Part shown: positions 40,535 to 40,609 of the stretch, piece after piece | How the letters are laid out: every line of letters begins with the position of its first letter | How positions within the stretch are numbered: position 1 is the first letter of the stretch | DNA from: Escherichia coli | Lineage (GTDB): Bacteria; Pseudomonadota; Gammaproteobacteria; Enterobacterales; Enterobacteriaceae | DNA length: 64,000 nt | Assembly (NCBI RefSeq): GCF_030013595.1 | Contig: NZ_CP122768.1 | Direction: 5' to 3' (one strand) | Program-made: the position numbers and the translations under genes | Notes under the pieces: model-generated | Databases searched by the model: none | Told to the model about the DNA's origin: nothing | What the model saw: the letters and a program-made list of their open reading frames with translations, nothing else

Positions 40535-40609
40535 TGGAGCGGGTAGCGGGAATCGAACCCGCATCATCAGCTTGGAAGGCTGAGGTAATAGCCATTATAC
40601 GATACCCGC
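40535..40609 (-). tRNA. tRNA-Gly (anticodon UCC), prophage-encoded
   Basis: Reverse complement GCGGGTATCGTATAATGGCTATTACCTCAGCCTTCCAAGCTGATGATGCGGGTTCGATTCCCGCTACCCGCTCCA folds as a cloverleaf with anticodon loop CTTCCAA. Confidence 0.85.

Follow-up and report, generated by a model that had tools for sequence, protein, structure and literature searches.

The window analysed here, a stretch of 64,000 nucleotides of Escherichia coli DNA (RefSeq assembly GCF_030013595.1, contig NZ_CP122768.1), holds a prophage of about 45 kb that lies between prfC (10566-12152) and yjjG (57591-58268), with its integrase at 55983-57206. On the minus strand of this prophage lies a gene for tRNA-Gly(UCC) which, judged by its sequence, is an intact canonical tRNA and a slightly diverged copy of the host gene glyT. 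On balance we think that this gene is probably working elongator tRNA cargo of the lambdoid late region, descended from glyT and feeding the pool of tRNA that reads GGA and GGG codons. The gene is of a known kind and its exact sequence is already annotated in both GenBank and RefSeq. A structured RNA lying 3′ of it, which we refer to as the trailer, seems to be the only element here that is undescribed. The gene is:

40535-40609, minus strand: tRNA-Gly(UCC), the U6-A67 allele of host glyT, 75 nt with an encoded CCA (ARAGORN, Rfam, fold)

ARAGORN found four tRNAs in the window, one of which is a tRNA-Gly with the anticodon tcc at 40535-40609 (-), and the Rfam tRNA model RF00005 gave the same segment 65.6 bits (gathering score 29). 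A sequence-only reading of the window had placed a 75-nt tRNA-Gly(UCC) at these positions, and both programs bear this out, adding the minus strand, which that reading had not stated. Taken together, ARAGORN, Rfam and the predicted fold give a cloverleaf with an acceptor stem of 7 bp and D, anticodon and T arms; in the minimum-energy fold (-26.4 kcal/mol) the acceptor, anticodon and T arms are present and the weak D arm is incompletely formed. The anticodon UCC occupies positions 34-36, flanked by U33 and A37, in the loop CUUCCAA.

The host reference used for comparison was the verified glyT of strain W2-5, taken from the thrU-tyrU-glyT-thrT-tufB operon. The window gene shows exactly two differences from it, C to T at linear position 6 and G to A at linear position 66, and is thus 73/75 identical (97.3%). 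Because the variable loop of this tRNA is 4 nt long, linear position 66 is canonical position 67, and the replacement of C6-G67 by U6-A67 that the sequence-only reading had proposed is therefore correct; the alignment to W2-5 glyT confirms it as a paired change in the acceptor stem. The best match to the window tRNA was 95-99% identical in 5,154 of 5,424 E. coli records, a range that would fit two differences from host glyT, as directly verified in W2-5 only.

The identity set for glycyl-tRNA synthetase (GlyRS) consists of U73, G1-C72, C2-G71, G3-C70, C35 and C36, and the residues at all of these positions in the window tRNA are the same as in W2-5 glyT. Since all known identity elements are unchanged, host GlyRS would be expected to charge the tRNA. 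E. coli glyT, which encodes tRNA-Gly2, has the same anticodon arm, D arm, T arm, discriminator and CCA as the window gene, and the same GlyRS charging and the same codons would be predicted for the phage copy. The two genes differ at the 6:67 pair, which is C-G in glyT and U-A here, and in their setting, glyT belonging to the tufB operon whereas the window gene lies in a prophage late region with other flanks and another promoter.

Relatives in other phages and the constraint on the tRNA

When 100,044 species-representative genomes were scanned for exact matches, the U6-A67 allele was found in none of them. Its absence from these genomes argues that the allele is phage-borne and is not the glyT of another host; on the same ground we prefer divergence within phages to capture from the glyT of another species, which was rejected. 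RefSeq genomes, mostly of swine enterotoxigenic E. coli (ETEC), already list the complete 75-nt sequence as a tRNA-Gly, and copy 1 of the annotated tRNA-Gly in SerU-LTIIb (KU052038), a prophage that carries an LT-II enterotoxin, matches the window tRNA at 100% identity. Counting sequences with at most one mismatch to the window tRNA, 268 E. coli records hold a copy, and tRNA-Gly(UCC) places beyond one per genome numbered about 1,150 in 5,420 E. coli genomes. U6-A67 is a common phage allele and does not mark the prophage studied here as special.

A scan of IMG/VR with the 27-mer of the anticodon arm returned at least 120 loci, the flanks of which were run through ARAGORN. Among the matches listed, to which all our array and copy counts from IMG/VR refer, the tRNA-Gly is the terminal gene of prophage tRNA arrays with spacers of 2-3 nt. 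The commonest arrays are Thr(UGU)-Gly(UCC) and 'Met'(CAU)-Lys(UUU)/Arg(UCU)-Thr(UGU)-Gly(UCC), and Thr-Gly arrays occur in most of the roughly 120 loci. The CAU gene appears to resemble ileX (Ile2, which reads AUA) and not fMet. In at least 41 loci the usual TAT spacer accompanies an array tRNA-Thr(UGU) that is identical to host thrU at 76/76 positions, and a few additional loci combine the identical gene with another spacer. Because the Thr gene is usually identical to thrU, and thrU and glyT share an operon, the pair may descend from a captured host segment, thrU-tyrU-glyT-thrT, with loss of tyrU. The sequences thus indicate that capture from the host operon followed by divergence in phages would be the simplest history. 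In the prophage studied here it appears that only the Gly gene of such an ancestral array survives. In single loci the thrU slot holds a variant, with the anticodon UCU in L002 (1122-1197, annotated as tRNA-Arg, with four further changes) and UUU in L011 (tRNA-Lys, with one further change); these UCU and UUU genes on a Thr body are apparent anticodon switches.

The 113 in-register copies of tRNA-Gly from IMG/VR comprise 24 distinct sequences. Thirty-three copies are identical to the host gene, 29 carry U6-A67, 16 carry U5-A68 and four carry C5-G68 together with U50-A64. Single-step forms also occur, namely a U6.G67 wobble in five copies and a C6/A67 mismatch in one. Across the 24 variants, double changes are found at the linear pairs 5-67 (GC/UA/CG), 6-66 (CG/UA) and 49-63 (CG/UA), 93.1% of the cells of the cloverleaf are paired, compared with 34-56% in slid controls, and the covariation score exceeds that of all 500 shuffles. 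The anticodon arm was fixed by the search pattern, and its invariance in these copies is uninformative. The three covarying stem pairs therefore indicate selection for a working cloverleaf, and this covariation argues for a constrained and presumably functional tRNA family. In a minority of the copies the T loop or the CCA end has suffered damaging changes, which suggests that some phage copies of tRNA-Gly are decaying. The sequence-only reading had suggested a functional, independently evolving phage copy. This stands as far as the compensatory pair, the covariation and the phage-borne allele are concerned; it does not stand as a property private to this prophage, as U6-A67 is carried by at least 29 of the 113 IMG/VR copies and 268 E. 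coli records hold the allele or a sequence within one mismatch of it. The phage Thr(UGU)-Gly(UCC) pair, with its stepwise compensated divergence and its wobble intermediates, illustrates neatly, on a small scale, how tRNA genes are captured by temperate phages and then drift.

Several known systems resemble the arrangement in the window. SerU-LTIIb shares with the window the structured trailer and the family of the downstream holin. It retains intact Arg(UCU)/Thr(UGU) genes before the Gly gene, a full methylase gene and a duplicated module, with toxin genes after it; in the window, by contrast, the partner tRNA has decayed, only a remnant of the methylase gene is left and toxin genes are absent. 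In the induced phage vB_EcoS-683R6 the layout is Q - tRNA-Thr - tRNA-Gly - holin - lysozyme - spanin. The Stx phages 933W and H-19B carry the tRNA genes ileZ-argN-argO downstream of Q. Genes for tRNA just downstream of Q have also been described in SfI, Sf6, ST64T, PS3 and phage 21 (tRNA-Asn/Thr) and were read as codon supplements (PMC3636060), and a tRNA-Gly together with a tRNA-Thr has been reported in the Stx2f phage phi467 (PMC5189129). With these lambdoid post-Q tRNAs (933W/H-19B, the SfI group and phi467) the window gene shares its position before lysis or toxin genes, its late orientation and the host-rare codons that it would read. It differs in being a single surviving gene, in the AraC-like moron that lies between pR' and the tRNA, and in having a promoter-like site of its own. 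The tRNA-Gly(UCC) of phage T4 has the same anticodon and the same general role of a virus-encoded reader of GGA/GGG, and is 86.7% identical to the window tRNA. However, the T4 tRNA belongs to a virulent phage and is strongly diverged from the host gene, including in the anticodon stem, whereas the window gene, from a temperate phage, has hardly departed from the host sequence. The window tRNA adds one more lambdoid prophage in which a host-derived rare-codon tRNA lies ahead of the lysis genes.

Late-region context, codon use and the case for decoding

Along the minus strand the order of elements is Q, pR'-tR', an AraC-like moron, tRNA-Gly, terminators, holins and endolysin. The tRNA gene is located inside the prophage, on the strand of the late transcript and between Q/pR' and the lysis cassette; the sequence-only reading had put it between the Q region and the lysis cassette, and the Pfam matches to Q, the holins and the endolysin agree. 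The distance to Q is 2.85 kb, a stretch that also holds three moron genes and the methylase remnant. In the window it is solitary, whereas relatives have two to four tRNA genes; an array is usual in this setting and is not a strict requirement. The features of the region are as follows:

43459-43836, minus strand: antiterminator Q gene (Pfam PF06530, E 5e-52)
42275-42988 and 42992-43435, plus strand: convergent two-gene moron, a DUF6731 gene followed by an open reading frame (ORF) of 147 aa, the latter with no family match
41895-41990, minus strand: late promoter region pR' and short-transcript terminator tR' (exact motif TAAGAGTGGTTAC at 41945-41933; terminator at 41911-41899)
41027-41878, minus strand: AraC-family moron gene (Pfam HTH_AraC, HTH_18)
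40845-40886, minus strand: C-terminal remnant of a DNA methylase gene, about 14 codons (tblastn 71% over 14 aa, E 0.076, weak alone; frame translation; alignment to L002)
40724-40751, minus strand: sigma-70-like promoter TTGATA-16-TAGTAT (consensus scan, 9/12 matches), about 115 nt upstream of the tRNA
40613-40690, minus strand: decayed tRNA remnant in the Thr(UGU)/Arg slot (the 3′ portion of the relatives' Thr/Arg tRNA aligns, with a 14-nt gap at the D-arm position)
40272-40253, 40231-40214 and 40117-40102, minus strand: three terminator-like hairpins between the trailer and the holin start (terminator scan)
39039-40076, minus strand: lysis cassette, with holins at 39684-40076 (Pfam PF16931) and 39419-39694 (PF05449) and an M15 endolysin at 39039-39422 (PF13539)

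A pR'-tR' unit with TAAGAGTGGTTAC lies directly 3′ of Q in the related loci L030 (Q 94% identical), L072, L085 and L046. In the window, Q is parted from its own pR'-tR' by the convergent two-gene moron, whereas in relatives such as L030 pR' follows directly after Q. A promoter just upstream of the tRNA that matches the -10 region of L030 at 15/17 positions was considered as the Q-dependent pR' and dropped, the true pR'-tR' being placed at 41990-41895 by the exact 13-mer. The DNA methylase gene is full length ahead of the tRNAs in SerU-LTIIb and in many IMG/VR loci, and the remnant in the window appears to mark a mosaic breakpoint where the AraC-like moron replaced the methylase. The -35 and -10 hexamers of the putative promoter at 40724-40751, with their 16-nt spacing, fall in the same alignment columns in diverged relatives (TTGAAA-16-TAATAT in LTIIb copy 1 and TTGCGA-16-TATCAT in L008), which points to this site as likely being the tRNA operon's own promoter. 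The array of L030 is also preceded by a separate promoter-like sequence. Neither ARAGORN nor the Rfam tRNA model (even at E<=5) matched the segment at 40613-40690, the predicted fold of which is a plain hairpin and no cloverleaf; on these grounds a second, cryptic tRNA ahead of tRNA-Gly was rejected, and the segment is listed as a decayed remnant.

E. coli has a single tRNA-Gly gene with a UCC anticodon. In codon counts from crude, hand-checked gene calls (13,228 codons of the prophage and 5,069 codons of the host flanks), GGA occurs 12.4 times per 1000 codons in the prophage versus 5.9 in the flanks and GGG 15.8 times versus 7.3, an enrichment of 2.1-2.2x. Together the two codons make up 41% of the Gly codons in the prophage versus 19% in the host flanks (Fisher p 2e-14). 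The holin at 39684-40076, directly downstream of the tRNA region, has five GGA and five GGG in 129 codons.

The explanation that we favour combines these observations as follows. The tRNA-Gly would be transcribed from its own sigma-70 promoter (40751-40724). During lytic growth, polymerase modified by Q and coming from pR' (at about 41960) would read through tR' and the pre-holin terminators and would add to the tRNA-Gly transcript. Host RNase P and 3′ nucleases would trim the product and GlyRS of the host would charge it, and the mature tRNA would join a GGA/GGG-reading pool which the host supplies from glyT alone. Amplified with the copy number of the phage, the extra tRNA-Gly should ease late translation, because prophage genes use GGA/GGG about twice as often as the host flanks and the holin uses these codons heavily.

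Several observations weigh against this explanation. The fold with U6-A67 is about 2 kcal/mol weaker than that of host glyT (-26.4 vs -28.4) and has no obvious benefit. The promoter of the tRNA is a consensus match with positional conservation only. The neighbouring gene of the array has decayed in this lineage, a sign that selection is weak for at least some of the array's members. Other rare codons are raised in the prophage too (ACA 2.6x, ATA 3.4x, AGA 2.3x, AGG 4.7x and CGG 2.1x), and the prophage has no tRNA for any of these five codons. With 5,069 codons the host set is small, and some of its genes are well expressed. The phage thus over-uses host-rare codons that the tRNA-Gly would read, but not specifically, as other rare codons are equally raised. 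Because the enrichment is generic, codon supplementation is plausible without being specific, and because the neighbouring array tRNA has decayed, a strict need for supplementation is doubtful. The suggestion in the sequence-only reading that the tRNA could supplement GGA/GGG decoding in late genes therefore receives mixed support: the 2.1-fold enrichment in prophage genes favours it, while the lack of glycine specificity and the decayed array partner count against it. With a generic enrichment and a decaying array, the codon-supplement story is weaker than it appears.

The strongest competitor is that the tRNA is a neutral passenger, captured from the host together with thrU, riding along in a mosaic module, and intact since it is young and small, with the 6:67 change having drifted through a tolerated wobble. 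We consider this clearly less probable than working cargo, though it stays plausible. That 33 of the 113 listed phage copies are host-identical and that the linked Thr gene is usually 100% thrU both imply recent capture. The decay of the upstream array member in this lineage and the lack of Gly specificity in the codon enrichment point the same way, as do the intermediates expected of drift (U6.G67 in five of the listed copies and C6/A67 in one) and the variants with damaging T-loop or CCA-end changes. However, compensated changes have arisen repeatedly at three stem pairs, with 93% of cells paired, which would be unexpected without constraint. The module is also common, with about 1,150 additional places for tRNA-Gly(UCC) among 5,420 E. 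coli genomes, and it persists in inducible phages, which likewise counts against a passenger.

A structured RNA 3′ of the tRNA

Between the tRNA and the holin genes the minus strand encodes a segment of about 175 nt with two structured domains:

40420-40508, minus strand: trailer domain 1, a four-way junction with the closing helix GGCACUG/CAGUGCU and a U-run after it (RNAalifold, pair counts)
40334-40411, minus strand: trailer domain 2, a long G.U-rich hairpin with a 24-pair main helix and a 6-pair apical helix (-37.4 kcal/mol, z -6.25)

Further trailer loci were found in IMG/VR with the apical 22-mer as the search pattern, and for this reason the invariance of the 22-mer counts for nothing. 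RNAalifold gave 46 pairs, and 98.6% of the cells are paired, compared with 29-56% when slid. The closing helix of domain 1 is 99.7% paired, and its inner hairpins differ in sequence between types with pairing kept. In domain 2 the main helix (helix 4) is 98.8% paired, and in 15 of its 24 pairs only one side varies, with the pairing preserved. One-sided changes that keep the pairing are a signature of constraint at the RNA level on the minus strand. The trailer had no Rfam match. Of 5,426 E. coli genomes, 422 contain a trailer-like sequence, which is either unannotated there or overlapped by a "hypothetical protein". Two other identities were considered and set aside. Of the small RNAs PasA, PasC and PasD, which lie just upstream of the holin in prophages of enteropathogenic E. 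coli, PasA and PasD2 showed no significant similarity when their sequences, derived from E2348/69 coordinates, were compared with the window. The trailer has as a candidate small ORF only a frame of 11-15 codons, with no ribosome-binding site and a length that is not conserved.

The trailer and the tRNA usually occur together. A tRNA-Gly lies upstream in 88 of the 94 IMG/VR trailer loci with enough upstream sequence, and in a separate count the U6-A67 allele was present in 75 of 80 trailer-bearing loci with a tRNA-Gly, at a spacing of 147-158 nt. As the fold is modelled, domain 1 is possibly the terminator of the tRNA operon. For the trailer as a whole the possibilities include an operon terminator combined with a double-strand-specific processing site, or a regulatory RNA derived from the tRNA trailer. 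A more ambitious proposal, which we hold tentatively and consider somewhat improbable, is that the U6-A67 tRNA and the trailer form a two-part RNA module, in which processing of the tRNA would release a regulatory RNA, or the trailer, placed just ahead of the holin, would act as a site of double-strand-specific cleavage or of termination and so set the level or timing of lysis-gene expression in this group of lambdoid prophages.

A further alternative is that the tRNA serves chiefly as a signal for RNase P and 3′-end processing, by which the late transcript or that from the tRNA promoter would be cut and the trailer RNA or the lysis mRNA released or stabilised, with decoding secondary. We judge this unlikely. 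The co-inheritance of U6-A67 and trailer in 75 of 80 loci at the near-constant spacing of 147-158 nt would be in keeping with it, as would the strong, strand-specific structure between the tRNA and the holin, and the 3′ external spacers of tRNAs are known sources of regulatory RNA in E. coli (3′ETS-leuZ). On the other hand, many arrays with host-identical or U5-A68 alleles lack the trailer, and the tRNA thus does not depend on it. The linkage may also reflect only the common descent of one module. The decoding and identity elements, which a mere processing signal would not need, are fully kept.

P2 OLD, integration and the remaining prophage genes

Less likely still is a role in counter-defence, in which the phage copy would replace host tRNA-Gly(UCC) destroyed or inactivated by a tRNase such as P2 OLD and the acceptor-stem change would lower recognition. 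P2 OLD, the effector of P2-lambda interference, has been described as a tRNase with the strongest in vivo depletion of Thr(UGU), Gly(UCC), fMet, Val(UAC) and Pro(UGG), so that, from the literature, the host counterpart of the window tRNA is a substrate of an antiphage tRNase (bioRxiv 10.64898/2026.07.10.737580). Two of these five top targets are the members of the lambdoid Thr-Gly array, and a bolder reading would be that the Thr(UGU)-Gly(UCC) pair has been retained because P2 OLD attacks both of its members so strongly. The CAU gene of the arrays, however, appears to resemble ileX (Ile2) and not the OLD target fMet. It has been reported that phage Thr(UGU) tRNAs rescue OLD-sensitive lambdoid phages (bioRxiv 10.64898/2026.07.10.737580; PMC12445682) and that extra E. 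coli Thr(UGU) gives no rescue from OLD (bioRxiv 10.64898/2026.07.10.737580). The array Thr gene, which was left unconstrained by our search, is mostly host-identical.

The sequence of the window tRNA itself also speaks against this role. It keeps C28-A29-G30 / C40-U41-G42 and A37, and its anticodon arm is host-identical; no change thus falls at the site of nuclease recognition or cleavage, the CNG/CNG motif included. Pattern scans of IMG/VR on the tRNA-Gly backbone found an altered C28 in two loci, both C28U, and an altered C40 in none, and OLD evasion through a change in the anticodon stem was rejected for this tRNA-Gly family on the basis of these counts. The loci L202 (348-422) and L203 (1763-1837) carry a U6-A67 tRNA-Gly with C28U, in which the first CNG of the OLD motif is broken and a U.G pair is kept. 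The OLD-resistant phage tRNA-Thr(UGU) (PMC12445682; bioRxiv 10.64898/2026.07.10.737580) is, like the window tRNA, a phage copy of a preferred OLD substrate, but the resistant tRNAs alter the CNG motif or have a shortened anticodon stem, and the window tRNA does neither. The retained cleavage motif argues against defence evasion, and by the known criterion these tRNAs would not be resistant variants. The phage Thr-Gly pair is among the best OLD substrates yet keeps the OLD motif, which makes it a testable negative for counter-defence. The trailer RNA and the coincidence with OLD targets are the only leads here worth following.

Transfer RNA genes are common targets of integration, and the window gene could in principle be the attachment site of another element, such as the moron cluster, or a partial attL/attR copy, with the mosaic breakpoint at the methylase remnant about 240 nt upstream in its favour; we rejected such a relic as highly improbable, since the tRNA-Gly is full length, a search of the 64-kb window for a second copy of its 3′ half (the 3′ 25 nt, <=3 mismatches) found none, the sole integrase lies 15 kb away at the prophage end with none adjacent, and the breakpoint is upstream of the tRNA promoter and not at the 3′ end of the tRNA.

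Elsewhere in the prophage, the end near prfC encodes a SLATT protein (PADLOC RTasSLATT, 2e-57) and a UG17-class reverse transcriptase (8e-159) at 12683-14735 (+), which by these matches together are assigned to a DRT-type defence system. Just beyond the reverse transcriptase, at 14891-15089 (-), there is an Rfam match to IS009 (226 bits). A second prophage defence gene, at 54026-55816 (-), adjoins the integrase and encodes an AbiU-family protein of 596 aa (PADLOC 3e-111) that is annotated as AIPR in relatives. Among the early genes of the prophage, Rfam places C4 antisense RNA (83.6 bits) and isrK (67 bits) side by side at 49145-49333 (-). In the host flank, at 60445-60767 (+), three identical tandem tRNA-Leu(CAG) genes of the leuQPV type are ordinary chromosomal genes.

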